DNA from: Christensenellales bacterium
GTDB taxonomy: Bacteria; Bacillota; Clostridia; Christensenellales; CAG-138
Direction: 5' to 3'
Length of the DNA stretch: 64,000 bases
Assembly (NCBI GenBank): GCA_045114775.1
Contig: JBGULC010000013.1
Location: 49,176 to 113,175, forward strand
Shown: positions 1,852-64,000 of the stretch, in pieces
Position numbering within the stretch: the first letter of the stretch is position 1
Layout: each line of letters opens with the position of its first letter
Made by a program: the position numbers and the translations under genes
Notes under the pieces: model-generated
Told to the model about the DNA's origin: nothing
The model's input: only the letters and a program-made list of their open reading frames with translations
The model's database searches: none

Positions 1852-1863
1852 AACCGTTTCACC

Positions 1864-3330: not shown

Positions 3331-3341
3331 CTTTTTTCCTC

Positions 3342-4814: not shown

Positions 4815-4829
4815 AGCGTTCTCCTTCCT

Positions 4830-6590: not shown

Positions 6591-6637
6591 ACTGTTTCCT
6601 TTCACCAAGATGCCAAACGCATCCTATCTTTCGGGTC

Positions 6638-44582: not shown

Positions 44583-44630
44583 GGAAAAAACGCAAGAAAG
44601 ATTTGGGCGCGATCTTACGCGGTGATGCGA

Positions 44631-45662: not shown

Positions 45663-45768
45663 ATCCCGGCTTGCAGAATCGTTTCGGCATCAAACAAAAC
45701 GAAGCAATCCGGGACAGGATTTTTGCCGCATACAGGTTTATCATCTATGGTGAAAGGAGGGAGACCGA

Positions 45769-46614: not shown

Positions 46615-46863
46615 AGGGGATCCGATCACATTGATTTGTCAAAAACCGGTTTTTCGCCGGGATCATCGGACGCATTCAGTCCGCCATACTATTGAAAAAC
46701 GCGCGACGGAGGAGACTTCGACGCGCATTTTTGTCAAAGACTGAAACAAGAATAACCGTTCCTGCTGCGGAACGGTTTTTGATTACGCATTTTTTCATTT
46801 TTTTAATTTCGTTTTAGGAAGCGCCTGTATGATGATATCATCAAAGAAAGCGAGGATGCGCGT

Positions 46864-47793: not shown

Positions 47794-47808
47794 GAAAGGA
47801 AAACCATT

Positions 47809-49635
47809 ATGTTCCAGTATGAAAAAGGATCGATCGTTCTGAAAAACGGCAAACGATTCTCGGTCACGCAGATTCTGCGCCATGTGATCCAGCTCGGCGC
47901 GTTCTTCCTGTTTCCCGGTCTGTTTCTGACCGCGTTCCATGCGATCAGGGATCTGGTCGTTTCTCTGATCCAAGGGACGTTCTCGTTCTCGGCACAGGCG
48001 CCGGGGCTTGTGACGCTTCTGATTCTTTTTGCGGTCACGGCACTGTGGGGACGCTTCTTCTGCGGGTATCTCTGTTCGTTCGGCGCAATGCAGGAACTTG
48101 TTGCGTTTGCTTCCCGTAAGATCATTCCGCGAAAGAAGAGCATTCCCGCAAAGGCGGATCGCATCCTGAAGTTCCTGAAATACGCTGTTCTGTTCGCGAT
48201 CGTGCTCTTTGTGTGGGTACTGCAGCTTCCGGTTGACAGCTCGTTCTCCCCGTGTGGCGTGTTCGGCATGCTCATTTCAGGCAACGGCAGCGTCATGCTT
48301 TCCGCAATCCCGACCGTCGGCTTTGCGATCCTTGTCGCGATCCTGATCGCTTCGTTCTTTGTCGAGCGGTTCTTCTGCCGCTATCTCTGCCCGCTCGGCG
48401 CACTGTTCACACCGGCGTCCAAGGGACGGCTGTTCCGCATCCGCCGGAAGGCGTCTGCCTGCAGCGGCTGCGCGAAATGCTCCCGCACCTGTGCCATGGG
48501 CGTGACCGTGCATGAGAACGATCATGTCACAAGCGGTGAATGCATCGACTGTATGCGCTGCACGGGCGTGTGCGCGCCGGAAGCGCTCACGGCAAATCCG
48601 CATCCCGCAATTGCGGGAACGGCTTCCGCGCTCATTTTGTGCGGTGCGCTCGGCGTCAGCCGCATGATCCCGGTCCAGAGCAGTACGACGGAGGCGGTCG
48701 CTTCGGCAGACGTTGCGCAAGAGCAGGGACGTTATGCGGACGGCGTCTATACCGGCAGCGGCACGGGCTTCCGCGGCGACGTCACATCCAAGGTGACCGT
48801 GCAGAACGGCAAGATCACGGATATCACAATCCTGTCGTATCGCGATGATTCGGATTATTTCGGCCGCGCACAGTCCGGTGTGATCGGCGCAATTCTGTCT
48901 TCGCAGACGCCGCAGGTCAACGCGGTCAGCGGCGCGACGTTTTCCTCCTACGGCATCATGGAATCGGTTGCGGATGCGCTGCAGCTTGTCGAGATCAAGG
49001 ACGTGGTCGCAGAGCAGTCAGAGAGCGCCGAGCAGAACAGATCACAAGGAATGAAGCAGCGCGAGGGTGAGGGCTTCACCATGCAGCCGAATGACGATTC
49101 GCAGAACGGTGAAAGACAGCACGGCAATCGCAGCGCCTCTGAAAACGGAACAGGCGGTCGGGGCGGACATAAGCACAGGACCAAGAACGGCGGCAAATCC
49201 GAAAACGCGGATCAAAATCGAAACAGAGGAAGAGACCGGGATCAAAGCGGAGAACCGGAGCAGGGGACTCTGACGATTGACCCGGAAACGCTTCCGCAGG
49301 AAACGACCGAAACGACGGAACAACCGATCACGGTTTCGGACGGCACCTATATCGGGAAAGGAACCGGCTTCCGCGGCGAAACAGAGGTTTCCGTCACGGT
49401 CGAAAGCGGCAGGATCACCGACATCACGATCCTTTCCTATCGGGACGATGAACGCTACTTTTCCCGCGCGGAGAATTCGATGATCGAAGCGATCCTCAAC
49501 AACCAGTCCCTGCGCGTCAACACCGTCAGCGGCGCGACGTTCTCCTCGAACGGGATTCTGGAAGCCGTCGCCGACGCGTTGGATCTTTCCTTCACCAACC
49601 CGAACACATCTAATAACCGTCAGGGAAGACACTGA
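47809..49635 (+). CDS. NapH/YccM-like polytopic Fe-S membrane protein with two C-terminal FMN-binding domains
   Basis: GRFFCGYLCSFG, RFFCRYLCPLG, CSGCAKCSRTC, CIDCMRCTGVC; two G.Y.G.GTGFRG...V..G.ITDI...SGATFSS repeats separated by a low-complexity linker. Confidence 0.88.
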   Translation: MFQYEKGSIVLKNGKRFSVTQILRHVIQLGAFFLFPGLFLTAFHAIRDLVVSLIQGTFSFSAQAPGLVTLLILFAVTALWGRFFCGYLCSFGAMQELVAFASRKIIPRKKSIPAKADRILKFLKYAVLFAIVLFVWVLQLPVDSSFSPCGVFGMLISGNGSVMLSAIPTVGFAILVAILIASFFVERFFCRYLCPLGALFTPASKGRLFRIRRKASACSGCAKCSRTCAMGVTVHENDHVTSGECIDCMRCTGVCAPEALTANPHPAIAGTASALILCGALGVSRMIPVQSSTTEAVASADVAQEQGRYADGVYTGSGTGFRGDVTSKVTVQNGKITDITILSYRDDSDYFGRAQSGVIGAILSSQTPQVNAVSGATFSSYGIMESVADALQLVEIKDVVAEQSESAEQNRSQGMKQREGEGFTMQPNDDSQNGERQHGNRSASENGTGGRGGHKHRTKNGGKSENADQNRNRGRDRDQSGEPEQGTLTIDPETLPQETTETTEQPITVSDGTYIGKGTGFRGETEVSVTVESGRITDITILSYRDDERYFSRAENSMIEAILNNQSLRVNTVSGATFSSNGILEAVADALDLSFTNPNTSNNRQGRH

Positions 49636-49651
49636 AGGGCAATATAATGAA

Positions 49652-49676
49652 AAAAGTCCCTGATTCAGGGACTTTT
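49652..49676 (+). terminator. Rho-independent terminator
   Basis: AAAAGTCCCTGA-T-TCAGGGACTTTT. Confidence 0.7.
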
Positions 49677-49788
49677 GGTTGCGGGGGGGATTGAAGAGAA
49701 CTTCCCGCTTCTGCTGGGCAGGGAAGTACGGTTCAAAATGTGATTCCTCCGGAAAGTGTTTTATCTTTGCGGATGGTCATTGACACGG
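49676..49788 (+). repeat. Composite direct repeat, copy 1 (att-like)
   Basis: TGGTTGCGGGGG (49676-49687), 34-mer ACTTCCCGCTTCTGCTGGGCAGGGAAGTACGGTT (49700-49733), TGACACGG (49781-49788); same order at 62832-62948. Confidence 0.75.
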
Positions 49789-49809
49789 ATCGATTTTGAA
49801 TCGTATAAT
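49780..49809 (+). promoter_or_regulatory. Consensus sigma-A promoter of the GH5 lipoprotein gene
   Basis: TTGACA-18 bp-TATAAT. Confidence 0.65.
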
Positions 49810-49878
49810 CATTACAGGATCCGATTCCTGACAATAATGTTTTGCTTACCTTACAAAAAAATACAAGGATGCTGCCAT

Positions 49879-50892
49879 ATGAAAAAAACTTTGATTTTGC
49901 TGCTCTCGATACTGTTTCTGCTGTCCGCCGCAAGCGGATGCGGCGCGAAAAACGCCGTGAAGGATGGCAGGGCCCGTCCGTCCTCCTGCGGGAAGCTGCA
50001 GGTGCTTGACGGGAAGCTGTGCGATCAAAATGGAGATCCGGTCATGCTGCGGGGCGTCAGCACGCACGATCTTATCACCACCGAATCCTTCATCAACGAC
50101 GACCTGTTTCGGGAACTGTCGGAGGAGTACGGCGTGAACGCTGTCCGGCTTGCCGTCTATACCTACGGCATGGGTGTGATCGGATACTGTGCTAAGGGAG
50201 ACAAAGGACGGTATCGGAAAAATATTGCAAACGGCGTCGCGTATGCGAAGGCGCATGATATGTATGCGATCATCGACTGGCATATTTTGAGCGACGGCGA
50301 TCCCAATCGCTATCTGGATGACGCAAAAGCTTTTTTCGCGGAGATGGCAGAGCAGTATTGCGATCACAGCAACGTGCTGTATGAGATCTGCAACGAGCCG
50401 AACGGCGTGGACTGGCAAACGGTGAAACGCTATGCGGAGGAGATCATCCCGATCATTCGTGAGAAAGACCCGGATTCCGTGATTCTTGTCGGCAATCCGG
50501 ATTGGTCGAAGGACTTAAGGAGCGTCGCCGCCGATCCGCTTTCGTTCGGCAACGTCATGTACACGCTGCATTTCTACGCCGCGACCCACGGACAGGAATA
50601 CCGGGACATGCTTGCCGAGGTGCGCAGAGCGGGGCTGCCGGTCTTCGTCACCGAATACGGCGTGACGGCGTCCAGCGGCGGGCTGCCCAGAGATCTTGAA
50701 AGCGCCGATCTGTGGATCGACCTTCTGGAACGGGAAAATATCTCGTATTGCATGTGGGCGCTGTCGAAAGCGCCGGAGGCGTGTTCAATGGTTCGTTCCG
50801 CCGTTCCGAAGTACAGCGGCTTTGAGCCTGACGACTTTACCGAGACCGGACTGTGGCTTTTTGAAACGCTGAAAAAGCATAACGCCCGCTGA
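49879..50892 (+). CDS. GH5 endoglucanase, lipoprotein (subfamily 2-like)
   Basis: Signal MKKTLILLLSILFLLSAASGC; LRGVSTH, IIDWH, YEICNEP, HFYA, TEYG. Confidence 0.9.
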   Translation: MKKTLILLLSILFLLSAASGCGAKNAVKDGRARPSSCGKLQVLDGKLCDQNGDPVMLRGVSTHDLITTESFINDDLFRELSEEYGVNAVRLAVYTYGMGVIGYCAKGDKGRYRKNIANGVAYAKAHDMYAIIDWHILSDGDPNRYLDDAKAFFAEMAEQYCDHSNVLYEICNEPNGVDWQTVKRYAEEIIPIIREKDPDSVILVGNPDWSKDLRSVAADPLSFGNVMYTLHFYAATHGQEYRDMLAEVRRAGLPVFVTEYGVTASSGGLPRDLESADLWIDLLERENISYCMWALSKAPEACSMVRSAVPKYSGFEPDDFTETGLWLFETLKKHNAR

Positions 50893-50962
50893 CAAGGCAT
50901 AAGGTGAAAAGCACGGCGGAACGCTGTGCTTTTTATATGCCTGCGCAGATCCTATATAATTA

Positions 50963-51013
50963 CGAAATCGATTAAGATTTTTCTTGACAAGTCGGATCAG
51001 AGGCATTTATAAT
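50963..51013 (+). promoter_or_regulatory. LacI-type operator plus promoter of the sugar ABC ATPase gene
   Basis: CGAAATCGATTAAG at 50963-50976; TTGACA (50984)-18 bp-TATAAT (51008). Confidence 0.65.
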
Positions 51014-51015
51014 GA

Positions 51016-51227
51016 AATCGTCCGAACCGGGACGATTGTCTTTTCAATCGGTCGAACCCCGCGCACTCCACTGTATGTGCGGAGAACGGCTGCATATAAG
51101 GAGGAAACCCATCCCCTCGGCTTGGGGTGCGGCAGTGTGGAGACCTGCCGCAATGCGCGACCGACGTATGCGCGGCGCGCGAGGCGGTTCGTTGATGAAG
51201 ATCGGGGCCGCTAAAGTCAAATGCAGT
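51016..51227 (+). ncRNA. Candidate structured 5' leader of the MalK/MsmX ATPase gene
   Basis: About 210-nt leader with several hairpins (AATCGTCC/GGACGATT; TGCGGCAG/CTGCCGCA; TATGTGCGG/CTGCATATA); family not identified. Confidence 0.3.
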
Positions 51228-52349
<1,122 letters not shown>

Positions 52350-52362
52350 ACAACAGCAATTC

Positions 52363-52400
52363 AGAAAGAACCTTGCCCGAAAAGCAAGGTTCTTTCTTTT
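52363..52400. terminator. Bidirectional terminator
   Basis: AGAAAGAACCTTGC...GCAAGGTTCTTTCTTTT between convergent genes. Confidence 0.7.
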
Positions 52401-52436
52401 ATCAGGAGGGATATGAAGAATATGTAAGGAAGGGGA

Positions 52437-54848
52437 TCAGATCGTCAGTTCAACGGTGCAGACGGGCACGTCGGTCAGCGGAACGATATTGCCCGGAACA
52501 GACTTTCCGTTGACGATCAGACCTTTGTTCTCGCCGCGGCGAACGGTGACGTCATAACGTGTGCCGCGGAACAGACGGGAGAGACGGCAGCCGGCCATTG
52601 TGTCGGGCAGGCAGGGATCGACGATCAATCCGTCGTAATCCGGGCGGATGCCGAGGATGCCCTGACTGACGGCGACGAACGACCATGCGGCCGTACCGGT
52701 GAGCCATGCGTTCTTTGCTTCGCCGTATGTTTTCGCGTCGCGTCCGGCGATCGTTTGGCTGTAGCAATAGGGCTCAGTGCGGTGGATCTCGCTCTTGTCC
52801 TCGATATAAGCCGGCGCGTTGCGCTTGTAGAGATCGAATGCGCCGTTGCCGTCCTTCACGGTGCAGTATGCCAGCGTGATCCACGGATTGTTGTGGCAGA
52901 AGACGGAGCCGTTCTCCTTGTAGCCCGGGGGATACGAGGAGATCTCGCCGAGATAGTCGTGATACTCCGTATAGCAGGGATGCAGCACCTCGATACCGAA
53001 TTCGTTGCCGAGCAGCGCTTCGGTCGATGCAAGCGCGCGCTTGCCGTACTCCGGTCCGCCGATGCCTGCCATGACGCAGAAGCCCTGCGGTTCGATGAAG
53101 ATTTTGCCTTCGTCGTTCTCACGGCTGCCGATCGGGCGTTCGAATGCGTCGTATGCGCGGCGGAACCATTCGCCGTCCCAGCCGTATTTCAGCGTTGCCT
53201 GCTCGATTTCTTCGACGGATACGCGCACGTCCGCCGCTTCTTCGGACAATCCGATCCGGTCACACAGCGCGGCGTATTCCTTGCCGTATTTTACAAACAT
53301 GCCAGCGATGAAGACGCTCTCCGCCTTGCCGCTTTCGAAGTTCGAGCAGGTCTGGAAGCTTTCACCGGGCGTCAGGCTGAAACAGTTCAGGTTCAGACAG
53401 TCGTTCCAGTCGGCGCGTCCGATCAGCGGCAGCCCGTGCGGACCGCGGTGCTCGATTGTGTAGCGGAGGCTGCGGCGCAGATGCTCCATGAGCGGGACCT
53501 CGGTGCCGGTTTCGTTGTTGAACGGCGTCGGCGTATCAAGGATCGAGAAATCGCCGGTCTCGCGGATGTACGCGCAGGTGCAGGCGATGAGCCACAGCGG
53601 ATCGTCGTTGAAGCCGGAACCTACGTCGGCGTTGCCGCGCTTGGTCAGCGGCTGATACTGGTGATAGGTGCTGCCGTCCGCAAACTGGATCGACGCGATG
53701 TCGATGATGCGTTCTCTTGCGCGCTCCGGGAGCAGATGCACAAAGCCGAGGAGGTCCTGACAGCTGTCGCGGAAGCCCATGCCGCGGCCGGTGCCGCTCT
53801 CATAATAGGAAGCGCTGCGCGACATGTTGAACGTGACCATGCACTGGTACTGGTTCCAGATGTTGACCATGCGGTCAAGCTTTTCCTCGCTGCTTTGTAC
53901 CGTGAAGCGGGACAGCAGGGAAGACCAGTATGCTTTGAGCGCATCGATCGCGGCGTCAAACTGCGCCTCGGTTTCGAACGCGGCGAGCATGGCCTGCGCT
54001 TTCTCCTTATTGATTACATTGAGCGCGGTGAACTTCTTCTCCTGCGGGTTTTCGACATAGCCGAGCCGGAAGAGGAGGGTTTTCGATTCTCCCGGGGCAA
54101 GGATCACGGAAAGCCGTAAAGCGGCGATCGGCGCCCAGCCCGCGGCAATGCTCATGAATGAGGTACGGCTTTCGACCGCCTGCGGTTCGCTCCAGCCGCG
54201 GAAGCGCCCGAGGAACGTGTCCCGATCGGTATCGAACCCGTCGATCGGGGCGTTGACGGAATAGAAAGCATAATGGTTGCGGCGTTCACGGTACTCGGTC
54301 TTGTGATAGACTGTGCCGCCTTCGATCTCGACCTCGCCGATGTTCCAGTTGCGCTGGAAGTTCGTCGAATCATCGACTGCATTCCAAAGACACCATTCGG
54401 TCACGCCGTACAGAATCAGCTGTTTTTCCGAATCGCTCTCGTTTTTCAGAACCAGCTTCTGCACTTCCATGTCGGTGTGCATCGGAACGGTCACGGTCAG
54501 CGACGCGGCAACGCCGTTCTTTTTACCCTCAAAGACGGAATAGCCGAGACCGTGACGGCAGCGATAGAAATCAAGCGCCGTCTTTGCCGGCAAAAACGCC
54601 GGGCTCCACACCGTTTCGCCGTCGCAGATGTAGAAACAGCGTCCGCCTTCGTCGTGCGGAACGTTGTTGTACCGGAACCGCGTAATGCGCCGGAGCTTTG
54701 CATCCTTATAAAAACTGTATCCGCCGCAGGTGTTGCTGATCAGCGAGAAGAACCCGTCGCTGCCGAGATAGTTGATCCAGGGGAGCGGCGTGTCCGCCCG
54801 CGTGATGACGTACTCCTTTGCGGCGTCGTCAAAATATCCGTACTGCAT
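52437..54848 (-). CDS. Cellobiose phosphorylase (GH94)
   Basis: YGYFDD..KEYVI..TPLPWINYLG, RGMGFRDSCQD, ADWNDCLN, KENGSVFCH, WLTGTAAW; cellulase neighbourhood. Confidence 0.88.
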   Translation of the reverse strand: MQYGYFDDAAKEYVITRADTPLPWINYLGSDGFFSLISNTCGGYSFYKDAKLRRITRFRYNNVPHDEGGRCFYICDGETVWSPAFLPAKTALDFYRCRHGLGYSVFEGKKNGVAASLTVTVPMHTDMEVQKLVLKNESDSEKQLILYGVTEWCLWNAVDDSTNFQRNWNIGEVEIEGGTVYHKTEYRERRNHYAFYSVNAPIDGFDTDRDTFLGRFRGWSEPQAVESRTSFMSIAAGWAPIAALRLSVILAPGESKTLLFRLGYVENPQEKKFTALNVINKEKAQAMLAAFETEAQFDAAIDALKAYWSSLLSRFTVQSSEEKLDRMVNIWNQYQCMVTFNMSRSASYYESGTGRGMGFRDSCQDLLGFVHLLPERARERIIDIASIQFADGSTYHQYQPLTKRGNADVGSGFNDDPLWLIACTCAYIRETGDFSILDTPTPFNNETGTEVPLMEHLRRSLRYTIEHRGPHGLPLIGRADWNDCLNLNCFSLTPGESFQTCSNFESGKAESVFIAGMFVKYGKEYAALCDRIGLSEEAADVRVSVEEIEQATLKYGWDGEWFRRAYDAFERPIGSRENDEGKIFIEPQGFCVMAGIGGPEYGKRALASTEALLGNEFGIEVLHPCYTEYHDYLGEISSYPPGYKENGSVFCHNNPWITLAYCTVKDGNGAFDLYKRNAPAYIEDKSEIHRTEPYCYSQTIAGRDAKTYGEAKNAWLTGTAAWSFVAVSQGILGIRPDYDGLIVDPCLPDTMAGCRLSRLFRGTRYDVTVRRGENKGLIVNGKSVPGNIVPLTDVPVCTVELTI

Positions 54849-54870
54849 ACGATCACCTCGTCATAATGAT

Positions 54871-54918
54871 TACTTAATCGATTAAGTACATTATACGCAC
54901 AACAACGAAAAAAGGCAA
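54871..54918 (-). promoter_or_regulatory. Perfect 18-bp palindromic operator and promoter of the GH94 gene
   Basis: TACTTAATCGATTAAGTA at 54871-54888; minus-strand TTGCCT (54918-54913)-17 bp-TATAAT (54895-54890). Confidence 0.75.
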
Positions 54919-55012
54919 GGGGTAATTTGAGAAATCTGCATATTTTTCGGAAAGCAGGCAGAAAACTGCATTTCGACATCAAAAATCCTTGAAAAAAAGT
55001 ACGAAAAACCTC

Positions 55013-55063
55013 TTGACGAATGTATGGTACGGCGTTATAATGAGTTTGACGAAATCGATTAAG
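55013..55063 (+). promoter_or_regulatory. Promoter and operator of the lacI-ABC operon
   Basis: TTGACG-17 bp-TATAAT (55013-55041); CGAAATCGATTAAG at 55050-55063. Confidence 0.72.
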
Positions 55064-55091
55064 ATTATATCATTTCGAAAGGGGACGGCGC

Positions 55092-56102
55092 ATGGTCACC
55101 ATTACGGATATTTCCAAAGCATGCGGCGTATCCCGCGCAACGGTCAGCAAAGCGCTCAACGGCGCGCCGGACATTGCCCCGAAAACCGCGGAACGGATCC
55201 GTGAGCAAGCGAAAGCGCTCGGTTATCTGCCGAATGCGACGGCGAGAGCGCTGAAGGTCGGCAGAAGCTACAACATCGGCGTTCTGTTTTCGGACACGAC
55301 GGGCGGCGGCATCACGCACGAGTACTTTTCACAGATCCTCGAAAGCGTGAAGGCTGAGGCGGAGCGGCTCGGATACGACATCACTTTCATCAGCAAGGAT
55401 CTCGGTGCGATGTCGATGGATTATTACGAACACGCGAAGTACCGCAGCTGCGACGGCGTGGTCATTGCCTCGGCGGACTTCCAGGATCCTGCGATCGTGC
55501 GGCTTGCGACAAGCGAGATCCCTACGGTGACGCTGGACTACACGTTTGACAGCCGGACGTCGATCCTTTCGGACAACGTGCACGGTATGGAGGCGCTGGT
55601 ACGGTTCGTATATGAGAACGGACACCGGAAGATCGCGTTCATTCACGGCGAGATGACCTCGGTCACACAGAAGCGTATCGCAAGCTTCAAGAAGACCTGC
55701 GCGGAGCTGAAGATTTCGATTCCGCCGGAATACATCCGACCGGCGGTGTATCACGATCCGAGGTCGAGCGGTCTCGCGACAAGGGCGCTTCTGGAGCTTT
55801 CGGAAAAGCCGACCTGCATCTTCTACCCGGACGACCTGTCGTTCCTCGGAGGGATGAGCGAGCTCGAACGTCACGGAATCGCGATTCCGAAGGATATGAG
55901 CGTCGTCGGATACGACGGCATCCCGCTCTCACAGGTGCTTCGCCCGAAGCTCACGACCTACCGGCAGGGAGCGACGGAGATGGGCACGGAGGCGGCGAGA
56001 CAGCTGATCGAACAGATCGAGCATCCGGATACCTGGCTGCCGCAGAGCATCATGGTAGAGGGCGAGCTTTTGCCGGGCAGCACCGTCCGCAACATCGGTT
56101 GA
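55092..56102 (+). CDS. LacI-family transcriptional regulator
   Basis: TITDISKACGVSRATVSKALNG HTH; SVVGYDG, PKLTT. Confidence 0.95.
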   Translation: MVTITDISKACGVSRATVSKALNGAPDIAPKTAERIREQAKALGYLPNATARALKVGRSYNIGVLFSDTTGGGITHEYFSQILESVKAEAERLGYDITFISKDLGAMSMDYYEHAKYRSCDGVVIASADFQDPAIVRLATSEIPTVTLDYTFDSRTSILSDNVHGMEALVRFVYENGHRKIAFIHGEMTSVTQKRIASFKKTCAELKISIPPEYIRPAVYHDPRSSGLATRALLELSEKPTCIFYPDDLSFLGGMSELERHGIAIPKDMSVVGYDGIPLSQVLRPKLTTYRQGATEMGTEAARQLIEQIEHPDTWLPQSIMVEGELLPGSTVRNIG

Positions 56103-56178
56103 AGCGCGGAAGCGTTTTGATAAAAGGAAAGAGGAGCCGAAAAGGTTTCAAAAAACAAAATAAAAAGGAGTAACAATC

Positions 56179-57480
56179 ATGAAAAAACTGGTCGCAATCC
56201 TGATGGCAGCATTGATGCTCGTCGGCATCGTTGCCTGCACCGCAAAGTCCACAGAGACTGCTGCACAGGGCAAGGTATTCAATATCTATGCCTGGAACGA
56301 TGAATTCAAAGGATTCTTTGAGAAGTACTACAAAGTACCCGAAGGCGTCACCGTCAACTGGATCATCACCCCGAGCGACAACGGCGCATATCAGCAGAAG
56401 CTCGATGAAGCGCTTCGGAACCAGGAAAAGGCAGCAGCGGACGACAAGATCGACCTGTTCCTCGCAGAGGCGGACTACATCGGCAAGTATGTCGATTCCG
56501 CTTATACGATGGACATCAGCAAGATCGGTTACAAGAATGCCGACACAATGTATGACTACACCATCAAGGCGGCTACCGACAAGAACGGCGTCTGCAAGGG
56601 TGTTTCCTTCCAGTGCTGCCCGGCGGCTGTCATCTATCGCAAGAGCATTGCGAAGGACGTTCTCGGCACCGACGATCCCGCAGAAGTTCAGGCTGCAATG
56701 GATAACTGGGAGAAGTTCAACGATGTCGCTGCAAAGGCAAAGGAGAAGGGCTATTACATGACCGCTTCCTTCGCAGAGACGTTCCGCGCGTTCTCCAACA
56801 ACTGCACGTCTCCCTGGGTCGACGAGAACAACAACCTGCAGTTTGACCCGCAGATCACCAAGTGGATCGAGCAGACCGACAACTTCATCGCAAACGGCTA
56901 CACCCTGACCGCGGGCGTTTGGGATCAGGAAAAGACGGATCAGATGTTTGCAGACGGCAAGACCATGTGCTTCTTCGGACCGGCATGGTACTACAACTTC
57001 TGCATGACCAACGCGATGGATGCCGAAAAGGGCTGCGTCGGCGACTGGCGCATCGTTCAGGGCCCGCAGCCGTACTTCTGGGGCGGCACGTGGCTGCTGG
57101 CAGCAACCGGTTCGGACAACACCGAGATGCTGAAGGACATCTTTGAGACGTTCACCATCAACGAGGAAGTCTGCACCAACCTCGTTAAGAATGACAATCA
57201 GTTCCCGAACAACACCAAGGTTGTTGACAAGTTTGCGGAAGATGCCACCTATGGCAACACCGCGATCCTCGACGGTCAGAACGACATCGCGATCTTCAGA
57301 GATCTTGCGAAGAACATCAAGTGGGAGAACCATACCAACTACGATCAGCTGCTGAATGAAGGCCTGCAGACCCAGCTTATGGAGTTCTACAAGGGCTCCG
57401 TCACCAAGGAAAAGGCGTTGGCGAACTTCTATCAGTACGTCAAGGAGACCTATCCGAAAATCAACGTACCGCAGAACTGA
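56179..57480 (+). CDS. Carbohydrate ABC transporter substrate-binding lipoprotein
   Basis: Lipoprotein signal MKKLVAILMAALMLVGIVAC; IYRKSIAK, FGPAW, FWGGTW; upstream of two permeases. Confidence 0.9.
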   Translation: MKKLVAILMAALMLVGIVACTAKSTETAAQGKVFNIYAWNDEFKGFFEKYYKVPEGVTVNWIITPSDNGAYQQKLDEALRNQEKAAADDKIDLFLAEADYIGKYVDSAYTMDISKIGYKNADTMYDYTIKAATDKNGVCKGVSFQCCPAAVIYRKSIAKDVLGTDDPAEVQAAMDNWEKFNDVAAKAKEKGYYMTASFAETFRAFSNNCTSPWVDENNNLQFDPQITKWIEQTDNFIANGYTLTAGVWDQEKTDQMFADGKTMCFFGPAWYYNFCMTNAMDAEKGCVGDWRIVQGPQPYFWGGTWLLAATGSDNTEMLKDIFETFTINEEVCTNLVKNDNQFPNNTKVVDKFAEDATYGNTAILDGQNDIAIFRDLAKNIKWENHTNYDQLLNEGLQTQLMEFYKGSVTKEKALANFYQYVKETYPKINVPQN

Positions 57481-57493
57481 TTCGGTAACTCGC

Positions 57494-57520
57494 TGCGGCA
57501 GGGGAAAATCCCCTGCCGCA
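57494..57520 (+). other. Stem-loop after the substrate-binding protein gene (possible mRNA stabiliser)
   Basis: TGCGGCAGGGGA-AAA-TCCCCTGCCGCA without a U tract. Confidence 0.55.
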
Positions 57521-57554
57521 ACCTTTCCGGAAGACCTCTTGAGAGGAGCATCCT

Positions 57555-58538
57555 ATGGCTAAGATCCAACAGGGGACAGGCAAGATCAAGTCCGTCAGCT
57601 ATGCAAAATGGGGCTACATTTTCATTCTGCCGTTCTTTATCGCTTACATCATCTTTACGCTGGTTCCGCAATTTTTAACGATTTACAACAGTTTTTTCGA
57701 GTATTTTGAAGACGGTCTGGAAACGGTCGGTCCGCGCTTTGCCGGGTTGGAGAACTATAAAACATTGTTTACGCCCGATCAGTCCGGCACGATCCTTATC
57801 CTGAAGTACGCGCTGAACACGATCATCATGTGGTTCATCGGCGCCGTACCGCAGTTCGTTGTCGCAATGCTGCTCGCGCTCTTTTTCACGAGTGCCCGCT
57901 TGAATATCAAGGGACAGGGATTCTTCAAGACAGTTATCTATATGCCGAACCTGATTATGGCGGCGGCGTTTTCGATGCTGTTTTTCACGATGTTTTCGAG
58001 AACCGGTCCGGTGCAGGCGCTTCTTGAAAATTGGGGCGTGCTGGACCACGAGTTCGATTTCTTTGCGCATACATTCACCGTACGGGGCATGATTGCGTTG
58101 ATGAACTTTTTGATGTGGTTCGGCAATACGACAATCGTGCTGATGGCAGGCGTCATGGGCATCGACCAAAGCCTGTTCGAGTCAGCCACGATCGATGGCG
58201 CGAACTCCGTGCAGGTCTTCTTCAAGGTCACGCTGCCGCTTTTGATGCCGATACTCATCTACTGCCTGATCACGGCTATGATTGGCGGTATTCAGATGTT
58301 CGACGTGCCGCAGATCTTAACCAAGGGCATCGGTGTGCCGGACGGGACCACAAAGACGCTGGTCATGTATCTGAACGGTTATATGAAGGGCGACACGAAC
58401 TACGGTATGTCCGGCGCGATCTCCGTCGTCATCTTTATCATCACGGGCGGTCTCAGCGCAGTCGTTTACAAGATGCTGTCTGCACAGTATAAGGATTCGA
58501 GCCGCAAGCACAGAATGAGAAAGGGGAACGTATTATGA
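57555..58538 (+). CDS. Carbohydrate ABC transporter permease (MalF-type)
   Basis: GYIFILPF, FAGLENY, EAA loop LFESATIDGAN...FFKVTLPLL. Confidence 0.93.
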   Translation: MAKIQQGTGKIKSVSYAKWGYIFILPFFIAYIIFTLVPQFLTIYNSFFEYFEDGLETVGPRFAGLENYKTLFTPDQSGTILILKYALNTIIMWFIGAVPQFVVAMLLALFFTSARLNIKGQGFFKTVIYMPNLIMAAAFSMLFFTMFSRTGPVQALLENWGVLDHEFDFFAHTFTVRGMIALMNFLMWFGNTTIVLMAGVMGIDQSLFESATIDGANSVQVFFKVTLPLLMPILIYCLITAMIGGIQMFDVPQILTKGIGVPDGTTKTLVMYLNGYMKGDTNYGMSGAISVVIFIITGGLSAVVYKMLSAQYKDSSRKHRMRKGNVL

Positions 58539-59782
58539 TCTGTAAGCTGTTCTCCGATGCATCGGTCGCTGCAGCGCAGGAAACCTCGGCGCAGAGCACT
58601 GCACAATTCAGCGCAGCAGTCATTGTGTACAGTATTCTGGCAAGTATTTGCCTGATCGGCATTGTTCTCGGCGCTATGGGGTTTGTAACCAGCGTTCGCC
58701 GCTCGACGCGTTCCGCTTCCGGCATTGTGATGAGTATCATCAGCGTGTTCATTCTTCTCGAAGGTTTGGCGTTGGCGATCTTCTTCATTCTTGTCGACAG
58801 AGCTTTCGTATGCCTTGCCGATGAAGGCGTTGACGCCAAACTGCCGATTTGGATACATATAGCGGCGTGGACCTTCAGTATCGTCGGATTGGTGCTGTCG
58901 GTTCTTGCATTCAGTCACAAGTTCAGTGAGAATACGCAGGGAAAAGTCAAGCTGACGGTACTTCGCGTGGTCGTATATTCGATTCTGGTCTTTCTGACGG
59001 TCCTTTGTCTGTTCTTTTTCTACCTGATGATCATCAACGCGACGCGTTCCAACGCGGAGCTTGCAACGGGTTTCACACTGCTGCCGAAGGGGAACTTTAT
59101 GAACAACCTGAAGAACGCCTGGAATGACCACTCGCTGATCAACATTCCGCGAGGTATGCTGAACAGCCTGATCATCTCGCTGTCTTCGGCGATCATCACG
59201 ACCTACTTCTCGGCGCTGACCGCGTTTGGTATTCACGCGTACAATTTCCGCGGAAAGAAGCTTGTGTTCACGTTTATCATGGCGATCATGATGATCCCGT
59301 CGCAGGTCTCTACGCTCGGCTTCATTCAGCTGCTGAATACGTTTAATCTGCGCGACAGCTTCCTTCCGCTGATCATTCCGGGCATTGCGGCGCCGGTCGT
59401 GTTCTTCTACATGAAGCAGTACATGGAAAGCGTGCTGCCGCTTGACGTTATCGATGCGGCACGCGTGGATGGCTCGAGCGAATTCCGCACATTCAATACC
59501 ATCGTGCTGCCGATGATCAAGCCCGCGATCGCGGTGCAGATGATTTTCTCTTTTGTCAGCTCATGGAACAACTATTTCGTTCCCGCACTGGTGCTCGACA
59601 GCCCGAAAAAGTATACCGTTCCGATCATGATCGGTCTTTTGAGAAGCGCAGACTTCGCAAAGTTCGATATGGGCAAAGTGTATATGTTCATCCTGCTCTC
59701 GATCCTGCCAGTGCTCATCGTCTACATTATTCTGTCCCGTTCGATCATCAAAGGCGTTACCGCCGGCAGTGTAAAAGGGTAA
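58535..59782 (+). CDS. Carbohydrate ABC transporter permease (MalG-type) with an extra N-terminal membrane region
   Basis: NSLII, MMIPSQV, IDAARVDGSSEFRTF..IVLP, WNNYF, GVTAGSVKG; ATGA overlap with the upstream gene. Confidence 0.9.
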   Translation: MICKLFSDASVAAAQETSAQSTAQFSAAVIVYSILASICLIGIVLGAMGFVTSVRRSTRSASGIVMSIISVFILLEGLALAIFFILVDRAFVCLADEGVDAKLPIWIHIAAWTFSIVGLVLSVLAFSHKFSENTQGKVKLTVLRVVVYSILVFLTVLCLFFFYLMIINATRSNAELATGFTLLPKGNFMNNLKNAWNDHSLINIPRGMLNSLIISLSSAIITTYFSALTAFGIHAYNFRGKKLVFTFIMAIMMIPSQVSTLGFIQLLNTFNLRDSFLPLIIPGIAAPVVFFYMKQYMESVLPLDVIDAARVDGSSEFRTFNTIVLPMIKPAIAVQMIFSFVSSWNNYFVPALVLDSPKKYTVPIMIGLLRSADFAKFDMGKVYMFILLSILPVLIVYIILSRSIIKGVTAGSVKG

Positions 59783-59870
59783 TTTCTTCATTACCTTCCC
59801 TCCTGACAACCGCTCTGGTCATGCAGAGCGGTTTCTTTCAAAAACAATATTTCAAAATAGGAGCAATCGA

Positions 59871-60899
59871 ATGAGAAACTGGAACGGTTATCAAAAAGGC
59901 GTCAATCTCGGCGGATGGTTTTCGCAGTGCGACCACACGCAGAAACGGTATGACACCTTCATCCGCGACGAAGACTTCGCGGTGATCAAAGGCTGGGGCG
60001 CGGATCATGTGCGCGTGCCGATCGACTATGAGCTTTTGGAGGAGAAGAGCGGCACACCGCGGGAGGACGGATACCGGCGTCTCAGAAAGACGATCGAGCT
60101 CTGCAGGCGGAACGGACTCAATATGGTCCTCGATCTGCATAAGACGGCGGGCTTTTCCTTCGACGCAAACGAGGGAGAAGCGGGATTCTTCGACAACGAA
60201 GCATATCAGGAACGGTTTTACCGGCTCTGGGAACGCATTGCAGAGCAGTTCGGAAACGATGCGGATATGCTTGCGTTTGAACTTCTGAACGAGGTGACGG
60301 ATCGGGAGTATTGTGATACGTGGAATCGGATCGCGGCGACCTGCATCCGCCGCATTCGGGCGATCGCGCCGAACGTGTGGATCCTCGTGGGCGGGTATTA
60401 TCACAACAGCGCCGTCGCGGTCAAGGACATCGACGTGCCGTATGACGATCGCATCGTCTATAACTTCCATTGCTACGAACCGCTGATCTTCACGCACCAG
60501 GGTGCGGACTGGATCCCTACAATGGATCCCGCGTTCCGCATCCCGGTCACGGCGACCTTTGCGGAAATGGCGGAAGCGGACGTTCGCATGGGAACGCTGT
60601 CCTGCGCAGGGTACGATCGGTTTCCGCTCGATACGGTGCTTTCATCCGCATACTTTGAAGCGTTTATGGCAGAAGCCGTATCGGTTGCGGAACGGAAGAA
60701 CGTGCCGCTGTACTGCGGCGAATACGGCGTGATCGACCGTGCAAACCCGGAGGACGCCGTCGCATGGTTCCGTATGATCCATACGGCGTTTGAAAAGTAC
60801 GGCGTCGGACGCGCGGCGTGGAGCTACCGCGAAATGGACTTCGGTCTTTCCGACGCGCGCATGGACGCCGTGCGGGAAGAATTGCTTCGGTATCTGTGA
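59871..60899 (+). CDS. Cytoplasmic GH5 cellodextrinase/endoglucanase (CelC-like)
   Basis: GVNLGGWFSQ, DHVRVPIDY, LDLHK, FELLNEV, FHCYEP, YCGEYG; no signal peptide. Confidence 0.9.
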   Translation: MRNWNGYQKGVNLGGWFSQCDHTQKRYDTFIRDEDFAVIKGWGADHVRVPIDYELLEEKSGTPREDGYRRLRKTIELCRRNGLNMVLDLHKTAGFSFDANEGEAGFFDNEAYQERFYRLWERIAEQFGNDADMLAFELLNEVTDREYCDTWNRIAATCIRRIRAIAPNVWILVGGYYHNSAVAVKDIDVPYDDRIVYNFHCYEPLIFTHQGADWIPTMDPAFRIPVTATFAEMAEADVRMGTLSCAGYDRFPLDTVLSSAYFEAFMAEAVSVAERKNVPLYCGEYGVIDRANPEDAVAWFRMIHTAFEKYGVGRAAWSYREMDFGLSDARMDAVREELLRYL

Positions 60900-60905
60900 T
60901 TCTAT

Positions 60906-60929
60906 GAAAAGCCTCTTCGGAGGCTTTTC
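60906..60929 (+). terminator. Rho-independent terminator
   Basis: GAAAAGCCTC-TTCG-GAGGCTTTTC. Confidence 0.7.
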
Positions 60930-60979
60930 TTGAATTCGGCGCCGAACCGCCGTATAATGACAGTGTACAAAGGAGCTGC

Positions 60980-62740
60980 GTGATGAAAAAACGTTCCGAC
61001 ATGATCACAAACCTGTTTTTCCGGCTTCTTCCGGTGCAGATCCTTCTGCTTGCCATCGGAAGCATCAATTCCGTGATCGACGGCGTCATGGCGAGCAATT
61101 TCATCGGCGCGGACGCCATGACCGTGACCGGTCTCTATATGCCGCTTATCAAGGTTGCGGAGACGATCAACATCGTGCTGTTGGGCGGTTCGCAGATCCT
61201 GTGCGGACAGTTTCTCGGCAAGAATCAAGTCGATCGCACGCGAAAGGTGTTTTCGCTGGATATGATCCTGATCGTGTCGGTCTCCGTCCTCTTTACGCTG
61301 ATTTCCTTGCTCTTTCCGATGAGCCTTGCCCGCGCGGTCGGCGCGGATGCACAGAACGCGGAGGGGCTCAGAGACTATATTCTCGGAATGGCGATCGGCG
61401 TTCTGCCGCAGATGCTCGGCACGCAGCTGACCGCATTTCTGCAGCTTGAACAGCAGCAGAAGCGCACCTATGTCGGGATCGGGCTGATGATGCTCGTCAA
61501 CGCCGCGCTCGATTATCTCTTCATCGTCGTGCTGCATATGGGCATGTTCGGGCTCGGGCTTTCCACCTCGATCAGTTACTGGGCGTTCTTCCTTGTGCTC
61601 GGCTCGTATTATTTCCAAAAGAAAGCAATCATCCGGTTCTCGCCGCGCGGTCTACTGCGGTCGGACCTTTGGTCAATTATTCGCATCGGCATTCCCGGCG
61701 CGATCACAACGCTCTGCCTGTCGATCCGCGGATTCGTTCTGAACGCGCTGCTGCTGAACACTTCCGGCGGCGACGGCGTTGCGGCGCTTGCTGCGCTGAA
61801 TACGTTCGGCGGGCTTCTGTATGCGGTGTCGGGCGGTCTTGCGGCGACGACCCGGCTGCTGGTCAGCGTGTATGCGGGCGAGGAGGATCGCGACGGCATC
61901 GTAAGGATTATGAAAACCGCGCTGTTCAAGGGCGTTCCGCTCGTGTGCGGCGTCGCGCTGCTGACCGCCTGCCTTGCGGTCCCGCTTACCCGTATGTTCT
62001 TTCAGGATCCGAACAGCAGCGTCTTTTTTCTGACGAAATGGCTGTTCCGGATCTATCCGCTGTGCATGCCTCTGTCGGCGATCTGCGTTATCTTCACCAA
62101 TTACAATCAGAGCATGGCACGCATGAAGATCGTACATGTGCTGTCCGTCATGGACGGACTTCTCGGCACGTGCCTTGCGTCGCTGGCGCTTGCGCCGCTG
62201 TGCGGTGCGATCGGTGTGTGGATCGCGCATGTGCTGAACGGCGTGTTCACCACGGTTGCCATCGTCGTTTATGCGATCCTCGTGCGGAAGCGGTTTCCGC
62301 GGTCGACGGAGGATCTGATCGCGATCGCGGACGGCTTCGGCGTACCGGACGAGCGGAGGCTATCGATCCCGATCCGCGATGCGCGGGAGGTGACCAACGC
62401 GTCCGAACGGATCATGGCGTTCTGCAGCGCACGCGGGATCGATCGAAAGCATGCGTATTATGCGGGGCTGTGCATGGAGGAGCTGGCGGCAAACATCACG
62501 GAACACGGATTCAACGACGGAAAGCCGCATACGGCAGAGATTCGCGTCGTGCAGAAGGATGACGGATTGCTGCTGCGCATTAAAGACGACTGCCGTGCGT
62601 TCAACCCGCAGGAGGCGATGGAACTGATGGATCCGAAGGACCTTATGCATAACATCGGTCTGCGCATCGTGCAGCGGTACGCAAAGAGAATGTATTACAA
62701 CAGCGCTTTGGGACTCAACGTGATCACAATCGAGCTGTAA
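60980..62740 (+). CDS. MATE-family transporter fused to a C-terminal RsbW/SpoIIAB-like HATPase_c domain
   Basis: NSVIDG...FIG, NAALDYLFI...MGMFGLGLST, GIP; C-terminal CMEELAANITEHG, LRIKDDC..FNP, IGLRIV; promoter TTGAAT-17 bp-TATAAT upstream. Confidence 0.85.
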   Translation: MMKKRSDMITNLFFRLLPVQILLLAIGSINSVIDGVMASNFIGADAMTVTGLYMPLIKVAETINIVLLGGSQILCGQFLGKNQVDRTRKVFSLDMILIVSVSVLFTLISLLFPMSLARAVGADAQNAEGLRDYILGMAIGVLPQMLGTQLTAFLQLEQQQKRTYVGIGLMMLVNAALDYLFIVVLHMGMFGLGLSTSISYWAFFLVLGSYYFQKKAIIRFSPRGLLRSDLWSIIRIGIPGAITTLCLSIRGFVLNALLLNTSGGDGVAALAALNTFGGLLYAVSGGLAATTRLLVSVYAGEEDRDGIVRIMKTALFKGVPLVCGVALLTACLAVPLTRMFFQDPNSSVFFLTKWLFRIYPLCMPLSAICVIFTNYNQSMARMKIVHVLSVMDGLLGTCLASLALAPLCGAIGVWIAHVLNGVFTTVAIVVYAILVRKRFPRSTEDLIAIADGFGVPDERRLSIPIRDAREVTNASERIMAFCSARGIDRKHAYYAGLCMEELAANITEHGFNDGKPHTAEIRVVQKDDGLLLRIKDDCRAFNPQEAMELMDPKDLMHNIGLRIVQRYAKRMYYNSALGLNVITIEL

Positions 62741-62795
62741 ACATCAGTACGAGTCACCTTCCGGATTGTCCCGGCACTCCTTTTCGAAAGAAGAA

Positions 62796-62826
62796 AGTGG
62801 CGATAACGAAATCCGTTATCGCCACT
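62796..62826 (+). terminator. Hairpin, probable terminator
   Basis: AGTGGCGATAACG-AAATC-CGTTATCGCCACT. Confidence 0.55.
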
Positions 62827-62831
62827 CGACA

Positions 62832-62948
62832 TGGTTGCGGGGGAGATTTTTGTCCGTTACACAGAAGAACACTTCCCGCTTCTGCTGGGTAGGGAAGTGC
62901 GGTTGTTCCTATGATTTCCTTGAAATAATACGAAGCACGATGACACGG
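62832..62948 (+). repeat. Composite direct repeat, copy 2 (att-like)
   Basis: TGGTTGCGGGGG (62832-62843), 34-mer at 62871-62904 (32/34 identical to copy 1), TGACACGG (62941-62948). Confidence 0.75.
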
Positions 62949-63250
62949 TTGTCCAACTTTCCAAGGGAAACATATCGGGTCAGAATGTTAGAGTTGAATT
63001 CTCTCTTGATGACATAGACATGTCCAGGTTTCAGCAAGGGGCTACATACGAGCAGATCCAGAAGTGGGTGAAGGAGAAGTACGGATTACATGTGGCACAC
63101 TTGAATATTGCAAAGACAAAGCGCAAATGTGGGATCATAGAGCGGCAGAACTATAATCTGCCGAAGAATGAGGACAGTAGGTCGTCGGAGACACCGAAGG
63201 AAAAGGAAGAGGCGATTATCAACGTCAATAAACACTTTCAGATGATTTGA
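62930..63250 (+). pseudogene. Orphan C-terminal fragment resembling RlmD/RumA 3' replacement tails
   Basis: The frame of ORF 63020..63250 extends upstream as TKHDDTVVQLSKGNISGQNVRVEFSLDDID (degenerate TxHVETVVxLS), then ATYEQIQKWVKEKYGLHV...IERQNYN...EKEEAI...HFQMI; no methyltransferase body. Confidence 0.65.
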
Positions 63251-63400
63251 TAATGTATTTATTAACACGAATCTTATCACAGACGCGGCTGATGGACTGC
63301 GACGGGGAACTGAAATTGTAATGTGACAAACGGGGCCGATGCATTTTATGATGTATCGGCCTTGCTTCATAGGTTTTTACGCATAAAGAGCAACTGATTA

Positions 63401-63429
63401 TTGACTAACGAACGAACGTTAGGTATAAT
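63401..63429 (+). promoter_or_regulatory. Promoter with an overlapping TetR-type operator
   Basis: TTGACT-17 bp-TATAAT; inverted repeat CTAACG-AACGAA-CGTTAG at 63405-63422. Confidence 0.7.
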
Positions 63430-63478
63430 AGGCGATGTCATTCAGCATTACTTCGATTTTGGAGAGAGGGCGAAGAGC

Positions 63479-64000
63479 ATGGAAAAGAGCAACACACGGG
63501 AAGAAATACTGGAAGCGGCGCTGGATCTGTTCGCTGTGAACGGATACGAAGCAACCAGTATCTCGCAGCTCGCCGATGCGGTGGGTATCCGTAAGGCATC
63601 CCTTTACAGCCACTTTGCAGGTAAGCAGGACATTCTGGATACTGTCGTCGAAACCGTTCTGAAAGGATATGCGGATCGTTCGATTTTTGTACGTGCCAAC
63701 TGGGACGATCCGGAATTCACGAAGGATAAGACCGGCATGACTGCAGAAGATGTGGCAAAGCTCATCCAGGGGCAGATGCGTTACATCCTGCATGACCCGC
63801 ACATCAGCAAGGGCAGGAAGATGCTTATGATCGAGCAGTTCCGCAATGCAGAACTGGCAGAACTGCAGACGAAACAGAACTATGGTGACGTCCTGAACTA
63901 TTTTACAGGGATGATGAGATTCCTGATCCGTGAAGGAACCGTGAAAAATGCAGATCCTGAGATTATGGCCGCGCAGTTCTCATCTCCGATCACCGTCTGG
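63479..64000 (+). CDS. TetR/AcrR-family regulator (runs off the window)
   Basis: Not in the ORF track; MEKSNTREEILEAALDLFAVNGYEATSISQLADAVGIRKASLYSHFAGKQDIL. Confidence 0.92.
   Translation, partial: MEKSNTREEILEAALDLFAVNGYEATSISQLADAVGIRKASLYSHFAGKQDILDTVVETVLKGYADRSIFVRANWDDPEFTKDKTGMTAEDVAKLIQGQMRYILHDPHISKGRKMLMIEQFRNAELAELQTKQNYGDVLNYFTGMMRFLIREGTVKNADPEIMAAQFSSPITVW

Follow-up and report, generated by a model that had tools for sequence, protein, structure and literature searches.

The 64,000-nt stretch analyzed here (the window; Christensenellales bacterium, GenBank assembly GCA_045114775.1, contig JBGULC010000013.1, positions 49,176 to 113,175) contains a 13-kb cellodextrin-use block enclosed by two direct repeats. 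These repeats are diverged copies of a single unit, about 110-135 nt long. We consider it likely that the unit, which starts with the end of the initiator tRNA (tRNA-fMet) and marks island breakpoints, is the displaced 3' end (tail codons, stop codon and terminator) of a large serine recombinase gene that has its attachment site in its own coding end. The 13-kb block was probably inserted as an island long ago and has since lost its enzyme. Below, the genome of the window is called G000 and the window contig C13 (114,989 nt), other contigs are written genome:contig, and asterisks in peptides denote stop codons.

A first-pass annotation of this DNA had reported a three-part repeat with unrelated spacers at 49676 and 62832. 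The repeat pair is real (Table 1): the 12-mer TGGTTGCGGGGG is present without mismatch in both copies, each directly after a hairpin, the 34-mers at 49700-49733 and 62871-62904 are identical at 32 of 34 positions, and TGACACGG is found at 49781-49788 and 62941-62948. When one mismatch is allowed, TGGTTGCGGGGG still has only these two matches in the window (chance expectation 0.43; at least two matches in 6 of 100 shuffles), and the 34-mer had no match in any of 100 shuffles. Both copies align with a single family profile over about 95 positions, with E-values of 1e-12 and 1.6e-29. Furthermore, copy 1 has an in-frame 15-nt deletion that is missing from its orthologues on G013:C7 and G027:C19, which stand ahead of the same cellodextrin block. 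The window copies are therefore one repeat unit with insertions and deletions, and the division into three parts with unrelated spacers falls away. Copy 2 is a typical member of the family with its terminator cut in the loop, and its 34-mer codes for ..HFPLLLGREVR..; copy 1 is a diverged member. TGACACGG lies within the -35 box of a 12/12 sigma-70-like promoter in copy 1 and in the hairpin-loop region in copy 2. In the whole G000 genome only three unit copies are found, two in the window and one on C2.

The 12-mer, here called the core, had been recognized as the 3' end typical of initiator tRNA-Met, and it does match, exactly and in reverse complement, the 3' end of the tRNA-fMet of G000 itself. 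ARAGORN predicted three tRNA(CAT) genes in G000, among which only the one at C2:16793-16868, ending in CCCCCGCAACCA, is of the initiator type. The third unit copy lies on the same contig and ends, on the tRNA strand, with ..CTCCCCCGCAACCA at 41165; thus, a 24.3-kb segment of C2 is bracketed by the tRNA end and the 12-nt repeat. ARAGORN found no tRNA or tmRNA (transfer-messenger RNA) in the window, and C13 ends 1.8 kb past it without a tRNA-fMet.

A stretch of 116 nt around copy 2 was searched with BLAST against 240 genomes. The unit was present in 26 genomes including G000, namely in 20 of the 27 other genomes of the genus and in five genomes from two other genera of the family. Conservation starts at the TGG of the 12-mer every time and extends over 110-135 nt, and in most copies the unit is closed by an intrinsic terminator, AAGCACGATGACAGCATCGTGCTTTTTT. 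With the 27-aa reading of the unit as query, tblastn gave 55 matches at E<1e-3 in 21 of the 28 genus genomes (1-10 per genome), all in open frames of at most 104 aa.

The copies form arrays that are anchored at tRNA-fMet. On all ten genus contigs with at least two copies, the copies are on a single strand; mixed strands were seen on one contig of the sister genus, G176:C4. On each of the ten contigs that carry both the unit and tRNA-fMet (full-length or as its 45-48-nt 3' half), G000:C2 included, the copies are on the strand opposite to the tRNA and on its 3' side, so that the tRNA closes the array. G018:C186, for example, has plus-strand copies at 3831, 10146, 26672, and 31522 and an intact minus-strand tRNA-fMet at 32142-32217, 600 nt past the last copy, and further anchored arrays are present on G021:C4, G020:C2, G022:C25, and G007:C3. 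The blocks between the copies are unrelated accessory modules with redox enzymes, sugar loci, HipA, regulators, and defence genes. These same-strand arrays bear out the tandem stacking of modules that had been proposed. The same arrays contain a second kind of boundary repeat, 45-48-nt 3' halves of tRNA-fMet near tyrosine integrase genes (G022:C25:29450-29497 and 37844-37888, G007:C3:59011-59059, and others), and the tRNA-fMet hotspot is used by at least two element families.

For the comparison of breakpoints, 19 kb of the window were aligned with the genus genomes and the junctions were then read. The ApbE/FMN-binding genes with their terminator hairpin are common to G000, G012:C92, G014:C18, G021:C8, and G027:C62, and the sequence to their right takes four different forms. 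On G012:C92, G014:C18, and G021:C8 the apbE flank leads within about 70 nt to a single unit, and the 13-kb cellodextrin block is absent. Unit 1 together with the cellodextrin block is common to G000, G013:C7, and G027:C19 with differing left sides, and on the latter two it comes straight after an AraC-type gene. Unit 2 with the adjacent remnant of an RlmD gene is also found on G003:C19, behind a different left flank. On G027:C62 the ApbE/FMN-binding pair is bracketed by two units and has a cellodextrin-like block ahead of it, an order that is reversed in G000. The synteny breaks fall exactly at the 12-mer, on either side. The repeats thus behave as the module boundaries they were taken for, and three relatives (G012, G014, and G021) have the same left flank without the enclosed block.

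The left flanks of the units belong to several sequence classes. The hairpin left of copy 1 is of the type termed B-prime. By a strict motif, 14 of 52 unique junctions have this type directly against the core, and several more have it by eye; on G018:C186 a hairpin of this type stands directly 3' of the intact tRNA-fMet. Because its left hairpin is of the tRNA-fMet terminator type, copy 1 looks like an outermost junction, with the old tRNA terminator, the core, and the island in this order. Logan contigs from public runs (four, compared over 47000-64000) were short pieces without informative joints; one 857-nt X15 contig spans copy 1 in the window arrangement and one X15 contig departs from the window sequence at about 62808.

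Table 1. Features of the repeat-bracketed region (positions in the window).
Feature	Position	Strand	Remarks
Terminator hairpin ending the FMN-binding-protein gene	49652..49676	.	Same type as the hairpin after tRNA-fMet in relatives (B-prime flank)
Tail reading frame, copy 1	49675..49743	+	22 codons and stop, LVAGGIEENFPLLLGREVRFKM*; in-frame 15-nt deletion relative to the family
Core, copy 1	49676..49687	+	Equals the final 12 nt of initiator tRNA-fMet (CCCCCGCAACCA) in reverse complement
Diverged 3' part of copy 1	49744..49809	+	12/12 sigma-70-like promoter TTGACA-18-TATAAT at 49780-49809, upstream of the gene for the GH5 lipoprotein
Cargo of the bracketed island	49880..62740	.	No recombinase
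GH5 lipoprotein	to 50892		
malK-I RNA	51048-51233		Rfam score 123.6 bits against a gathering score of 60.3; shortly before the gene of the MalK/MsmX-type ATPase
MalK/MsmX-type ATPase	to 52349		
GH94 phosphorylase	52437-54848	minus	
LacI regulator	55092-56102		
Probable binding protein	56179-57480		No Pfam match
Two ABC permeases	57555-59782		
GH5	59871-60899		
MatE + HATPase_c_2 open reading frame	60980-62740		586 aa; MatE at residues 28-180, C-terminal HATPase_c_2 at 467-583
Hairpin directly left of copy 2 (class 2 left flank)	62795..62827	.	Common to junctions in G012, G014, G021, and G027
Tail reading frame, copy 2	62831..62914	+	27 codons and stop, MVAGEIFVRYTEEHFPLLLGREVRLFL*
Core, copy 2	62832..62843	+	Exact TGGTTGCGGGGG
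Spacer and left half of the family terminator hairpin	62915..62946	+	AAGCACGATGACA; truncated, most other copies have the full hairpin and T run
Long-form RlmD C-terminal remnant	62936..63250	+	About 104 codons, fused to the truncated hairpin; outside the repeat family; same junction on G003:C19

The body of the unit, up to its stop codon, evolves like coding DNA. On a tree of 37 sequences, Fitch changes at codon positions 1:2:3 numbered 44:22:91 in the frame xTG GTT GCG GGG GAG.. (chi-square p 5e-11), and straight after the stop codon they numbered 24:23:21. The 34-mer with its stem had also been proposed as a possible small RNA. Rfam gave nothing at gathering score at either copy, its one match in the window being the malK-I RNA, and the stem keeps all seven pairs in 23 of 35 unique copies and has one to three broken pairs in the remaining 12; compensating changes occur at only two of the seven pairs, in one and three sequences. 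A small RNA is thus disfavoured, since the stem lacks covariation and lies in a codon-type stretch.

A coding unit with its own terminator could be a free-standing small gene for a 27-35-aa peptide, or else a dispersed repeat resembling a miniature inverted-repeat transposable element (MITE), with its border position being secondary. The substitution pattern is of the coding type, ATG, GTG, or TTG precedes GTT in most copies, and most copies then have an intrinsic terminator, all of which would suit a small gene. However, conservation begins exactly at the TGG that complements the CCA end of the tRNA, and the apparent start codon is N followed by the TG that complements the CA of the tRNA, so an NTG is forced by the tRNA end. 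Moreover, no conserved ribosome-binding site or promoter is found upstream, where the left flanks are unrelated terminators or other sequence classes. As to a MITE-like element, the copies are confined to same-strand arrays 3' of tRNA-fMet instead of being dispersed, and G000 has only three. We regard this explanation as quite improbable. A leaderless small gene or an attenuation leader was considered as well and rejected, as the left edge is the tRNA CCA end and the upstream flanks are unrelated.

The absence of a recombinase gene, noted earlier for the window, extends to the whole contig: neither PF00589 (Phage_integrase) nor PF00239 (Resolvase) had a match anywhere on C13. A trans-acting recombinase had been postulated, and the best candidate enzyme is encoded elsewhere in the genome, outside the window. 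At C2:16825-18291 lies a gene for a 488-aa large serine recombinase with the domains Resolvase PF00239, Recombinase PF07508, and Zn_ribbon_recom PF13408. This gene adjoins tRNA-fMet, reads antisense into the tRNA in the frame of the unit, and ends ..NLKSVCVE-MVAG-AGLEPAASGL*. After it come genes for ParB-like proteins and relaxase, and then defence cargo. Orthologues of the recombinase abut tRNA-fMet or its 3' half in 4 of 4 genomes (G000:C2, G008:C65, G020:C2, and G007:C3), and in three of these four loci a unit copy marks the other island end, 24.3, 15.3, and 19.3 kb away. The islands on G000:C2 and G020:C2 have a common backbone and different cargo.

The habit of reading into a tRNA is widespread in this recombinase family. 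Among 8000 database proteins scored, 802 were homologues at E<=1e-20, and the tails of the 120 best were read; in 85 of these 120 the tail is readable as antisense tRNA. Thirty-five end ..VAGxG[LF]EPxxSGL*, 43 end in the manner of ..GCGGRI*, which is the same tRNA in another frame, and seven end ..VAAIRFERMTGRV*, the antisense of a second tRNA(CAT), as on G000:C5. Long tails with QH.[LF]PEILF, which resembles EEHFPLLLG of the unit, are found in 17 homologues (for instance, VAGEGFVEYLKQYLPEILFKYY in P0042 as compared with VAGEIFVRYTEEHFPLLLGRE in the unit), and the remaining 18 have other or truncated ends. When the long tails were compared by hhalign with the units without the core, the P-value was 0.002 but the probability just 14%, so that the homology of the tails is weak. 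At the natural junction L028/L089 the last 14 nt of the recombinase gene (up to about 25 nt at looser similarity) are followed, after a 1-nt deletion, by the core and the unit, and a junction-pattern scan of genome contigs gave one match, of the same kind as L028.

Several further observations concern recombinases of this type. A second serine recombinase, 60% identical, is encoded at G000:C5:28592-30091; it runs antisense into another tRNA(CAT) gene and ends ..LVAAIRFERMTGRV*, and the antisense-into-tRNA habit is thus common to paralogues with different tRNA targets. At L080 (G002:C253) a recombinase of this second type is open through two cores (core, 46 codons, hairpin, core, tRNA), which is a tandem junction. 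In plasmid and phage collections, recombinase matches were found at 27-39% identity only. The window flanks, compared by blastx with the recombinase set, contained no remnant at E<0.1. The class 2 hairpin was also considered as a recombinase remnant, as it reads ..TKSVIATRHGCGG in another frame and by eye resembles the ends ..TLKSVLG..GCGG of some family members; the resemblance is not significant.

Taken together, these findings suggest the following course of events. The circular element would carry the recombinase, the core, and the tail in this order, and in the circle the recombinase gene would end with the tail and terminator of the unit, so that in the excised form translation of the recombinase would extend through the tail. 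Recombination of the circle with the 3' end of tRNA-fMet inside the 12-nt core would rebuild the tRNA; after integration the recombinase would run antisense into the tRNA, ending ..MVAGAGLEPAASGL*, and its native tail and terminator would stay at the far end of the island, beside the old tRNA terminator hairpin. Every new insertion at the tRNA would shift the older islands outward, and these would later lose their recombinase. The segment 49676-62831 may thus be a recombinase-less island with the cellodextrin-use locus, copy 1 marking its outer end and copy 2 that of the neighbouring island on the tRNA side. The absence of a recombinase from C13 is the reason to read the block as a recombinase-less member of a tandem array. 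The C2 enzyme may still act on these sites.

A number of results weigh against this reading. Both tRNA-fMet and a recombinase are missing from C13, and we can therefore connect it with C2 only by inference. G012, G014, and G021 retain the class 2 hairpin between the old terminator and the core and are therefore not exact core-to-core excision products. No recombinase with the unit as its tail was seen in the 28 genus genomes, where the open frames holding the unit are all of at most 104 aa, and among 401 genomes of the order there were no fused recombinase-unit genes, the four weak matches in longer frames being antisense noise. An hmmsearch profile of the unit peptide gave nothing below E 1 against the recombinases and 10,130 genome open reading frames (ORFs). 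A protein database search for longer proteins with the unit peptide gave three matches and no recombinase; these were a deacetylase and a helicase read-through into the unit and a 102-aa ORF over two tandem cores. Junction-pattern scans had no match in metagenome contigs (two patterns) or viral contigs. Finally, tyrosine integrase genes are found beside three junctions. In the public protein clusters P0123 and P0124, a polysaccharide deacetylase and a helicase-type protein have the unit peptide at their ends, and both look like read-through gene calls.

The three integrase genes raise the question of whether the unit is instead an attachment-site arm of tyrosine-integrase islands that target the 3' end of tRNA-fMet, with the serine recombinase as a bystander. 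The 3' ends of tRNAs are classical targets of tyrosine integrases, and integrase genes end about 125-300 nt left of the hairpin-core junction at G000:C2:41291-42205, on G004:C82, and on G018:C204. On the other hand, tyrosine-integrase islands in the same arrays are bounded by the other repeat, 45-48 nt of the tRNA 3' half (positions 29/32-76), whereas the unit has just 12 nt in common with the tRNA. The integrases also stand on the core side opposite to the unit, past the tRNA-type hairpin, which is the place of an earlier tRNA-adjacent island, and the codon-periodic pattern ending at the stop codon would be left unexplained. We therefore think it very unlikely that the unit belongs to such islands.

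The variable order of the modules could also point to an integron-like system, whose trans-acting recombinase would today still take up, release, and rearrange metabolic modules that have no recombinase of their own. Module order differs by species, as in the reversed order of the cellodextrin-like block and the ApbE pair in G027:C62 and G000; arrays have up to four copies in 7 kb, and one pair of copies is 600 nt apart; and many internal junctions have conserved left-flank classes and so look like complete two-armed sites. Nevertheless, nothing shows the movement of a recombinase-less module, the Logan contigs had no informative joints, and the same patterns are accounted for by successive insertions at the tRNA with later deletions and homologous exchange. 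The modules are multi-gene with their own regulators and promoters, unlike integron cassettes. Ongoing movement of this kind has little probability in our view. A bolder version of the displaced-tail explanation, which we find doubtful, would combine both ideas: a recombinase family with the attachment site in its last codons would target tRNA(CAT), the swap of the native tail for a tRNA-antisense tail on integration would make the enzyme differ between its free and integrated states and so switch its direction or activity, and orphan tails would be complete two-armed sites by which recombinase-less modules, the present cellodextrin locus among them, move in trans like giant integron cassettes.

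Next to copy 2, the first-pass annotation had noticed a degenerate RlmD C-terminal motif, which is borne out by the match to long-form RlmD. The frame open from 62924 reads ..KHDDTVVQLSKGN..YEQIQKWVKEKYGLHVAHLNIAKTKRKCGIIERQ.. and has 42-73% identity with the C-termini of the 544-629-aa long-form RlmD proteins of relatives. The further idea that rlmD is an integration target did not hold. In G000, PF05958 matches only an intact 449-aa gene on C44 and, weakly, C8; no 5' part of rlmD is present at the other end of the insert, and the fragment is found only after copy 2 and its G003 orthologue. We regard its place next to the repeat as incidental. The 108-aa fragment (62924-63250; also on G003:C19) joins the unit in the terminator hairpin, after GCACGATGACA, in the same reading frame, and the unit hairpin read as KHDD(S/T)(I/V)V resembles HVETVV of RlmD. 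The unit as a whole was also considered as a degenerate rlmD 3' end and this was rejected, since its peptide similarity to ..GF....V.PVDMFP.T.HVETV of RlmD is weak and by eye out of register, and the match to a 572-aa frame had an E-value of 0.99. Overall, the tRNA-end core, the boundaries, the stacking, and the serine recombinase candidate of the earlier interpretation are retained, and the rlmD target and the small RNA are given up.

The nine ORFs at 49756-62740, among 16 scanned in 44622-64000, contained no recombinase or relaxase domain in Pfam (Table 1). By its sequence, the cellodextrin block corresponds to the description of a cis-mobilizable element (CIME), with putative att-type sites at both ends and no recombination or transfer genes between them. 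The 586-aa ORF at its right end is either an unusual fusion or the product of a MATE gene that was truncated and became linked to a kinase-like one. For the MalK/MsmX-type ATPase, the mechanically called start at 51012 overlaps the malK-I RNA, and the true start is therefore probably after 51233. The G+C content is 0.62 at 36-42 kb and 0.51-0.59 from 42 kb to the window end; since it falls at about 42000, the accessory zone may begin well left of copy 1. Elsewhere in the window, a 600-nt tandem duplication (75-81% identity) at 48737-49587 gives two FMN_bind stretches in the gene of a 608-aa 4Fe-4S/FMN-binding protein, and at 543-8044 there are three to four copies of a 71-94-nt repeat that ends in CGTTTCAT, the minus-strand start of paralogous lipoprotein-type genes.

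Islands of serine recombinases are usually described with 2-bp crossovers inside dispensable genes. In textbooks, the 3' ends of tRNAs are the domain of tyrosine integrases. The open-access literature searched gave no description of a serine recombinase targeting tRNA-fMet, which is not proof of absence. The present serine recombinase family, with its antisense reading into tRNA genes, is a large one (802 of the 8000 scored proteins at E<=1e-20). The unit is also a precise marker for delimiting accessory modules of fibre degradation, redox metabolism, and defence in fragmented genomes of rumen Clostridia, and it suggests that the cellodextrin-use locus travels as such a module.

The closest precedent is found in the ssrA islands of Dehalococcoides with the large serine recombinase DsiB. 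According to the available part of that report, these islands stand in tandem between 20-bp repeats of the 3' end of tmRNA, an integration module is missing from many of them, and dsiB always overlaps attL/ssrA at its 3' end, for which its authors suggested that the gene may be complete on the circle only (PMC3146451). Here, too, islands are arranged in tandem 3' of a small-RNA gene with repeats of its 3' end, the recombinase gene lies beside attL and extends at its 3' end over attL into either the RNA gene or the adjoining island, many islands are without the integration module (there proposed to be cis-mobilizable), a ParB-like gene belongs to the module, and extra conserved bases stand beside the repeat (PMC3146451, in the part available). 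The target here is tRNA-fMet instead of tmRNA and the core has 12 nt instead of 20; moreover, what would be the displaced tail is long and conserved (23-31 codons, stop codon, and terminator), with codon-type substitutions, in contrast to the divergent C-termini described in the same part of that source (PMC3146451). The present hosts are rumen Clostridia, and the cargo consists of carbohydrate and redox modules and defence genes. The codon-conserved displaced tail makes the idea of a dsiB complete only in the circle directly testable.

Tandem accretion is exemplified by the ICESt1/ICESt3-CIME arrangement at fda. In Faecalibacterium, tandem integrative and conjugative or integrative and mobilizable elements (ICEs and IMEs) and their remnants are common, as far as the accessible part of the source goes (PMC12084326). 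Like such tandems of ICEs or IMEs and CIMEs in Firmicutes, the present arrays retain decayed elements without an integrase between att sites, with cargo for carbohydrate uptake and defence; those elements mostly have tyrosine integrases or serine recombinases within genes, and the same part of the source describes no gene-internal attachment site with tail exchange (PMC12084326). IMEs with serine recombinases have, in the portion of the report at hand, very short direct repeats and insert within dispensable genes such as rumA, which they disrupt (PMC5704250). The C2 island resembles them in having a large serine recombinase and a relaxase module and in being site-specific, and the ORFs scanned likewise contained no genes for a conjugation pore; it differs in that the target RNA gene is rebuilt, a 12-nt repeat results, and rlmD is not the target (PMC5704250, same portion). 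The serine recombinases of the Clostridium tetani prophages phiCT453B, phiCT19406B, and phiCTC2B are about 30% identical; the annotated gene (bases 4-1479 of the record) overlaps the annotated attL, which places its 3' end, too, at the attachment site, although these are prophages and not IMEs and were compared by record annotation.

The cassette arrays of integrons have the same orientation, each cassette being closed by a recombination site of about 60-140 nt, and many are without a recombinase. The present arrays share the uniform orientation, the closing site, and the many units without a recombinase; in contrast to integrons, C13 has no tyrosine recombinase (PF00589), no IntI-type integrase or attI is present, the modules are multi-gene, 0.6-28 kb in size, with their own promoters, and the site is a gene fragment, not an imperfect palindrome folded as single-stranded DNA. 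The integrase of SSV1 type is an archaeal tyrosine recombinase with attP within its gene, which is split on integration into a tRNA gene. An attachment site within the recombinase gene and a tRNA gene as target would be common to both systems, but while the SSV1 split takes large pieces of the gene apart, the exchange here would involve no more than the last 23-31 codons and would leave the catalytic and DNA-binding domains intact.

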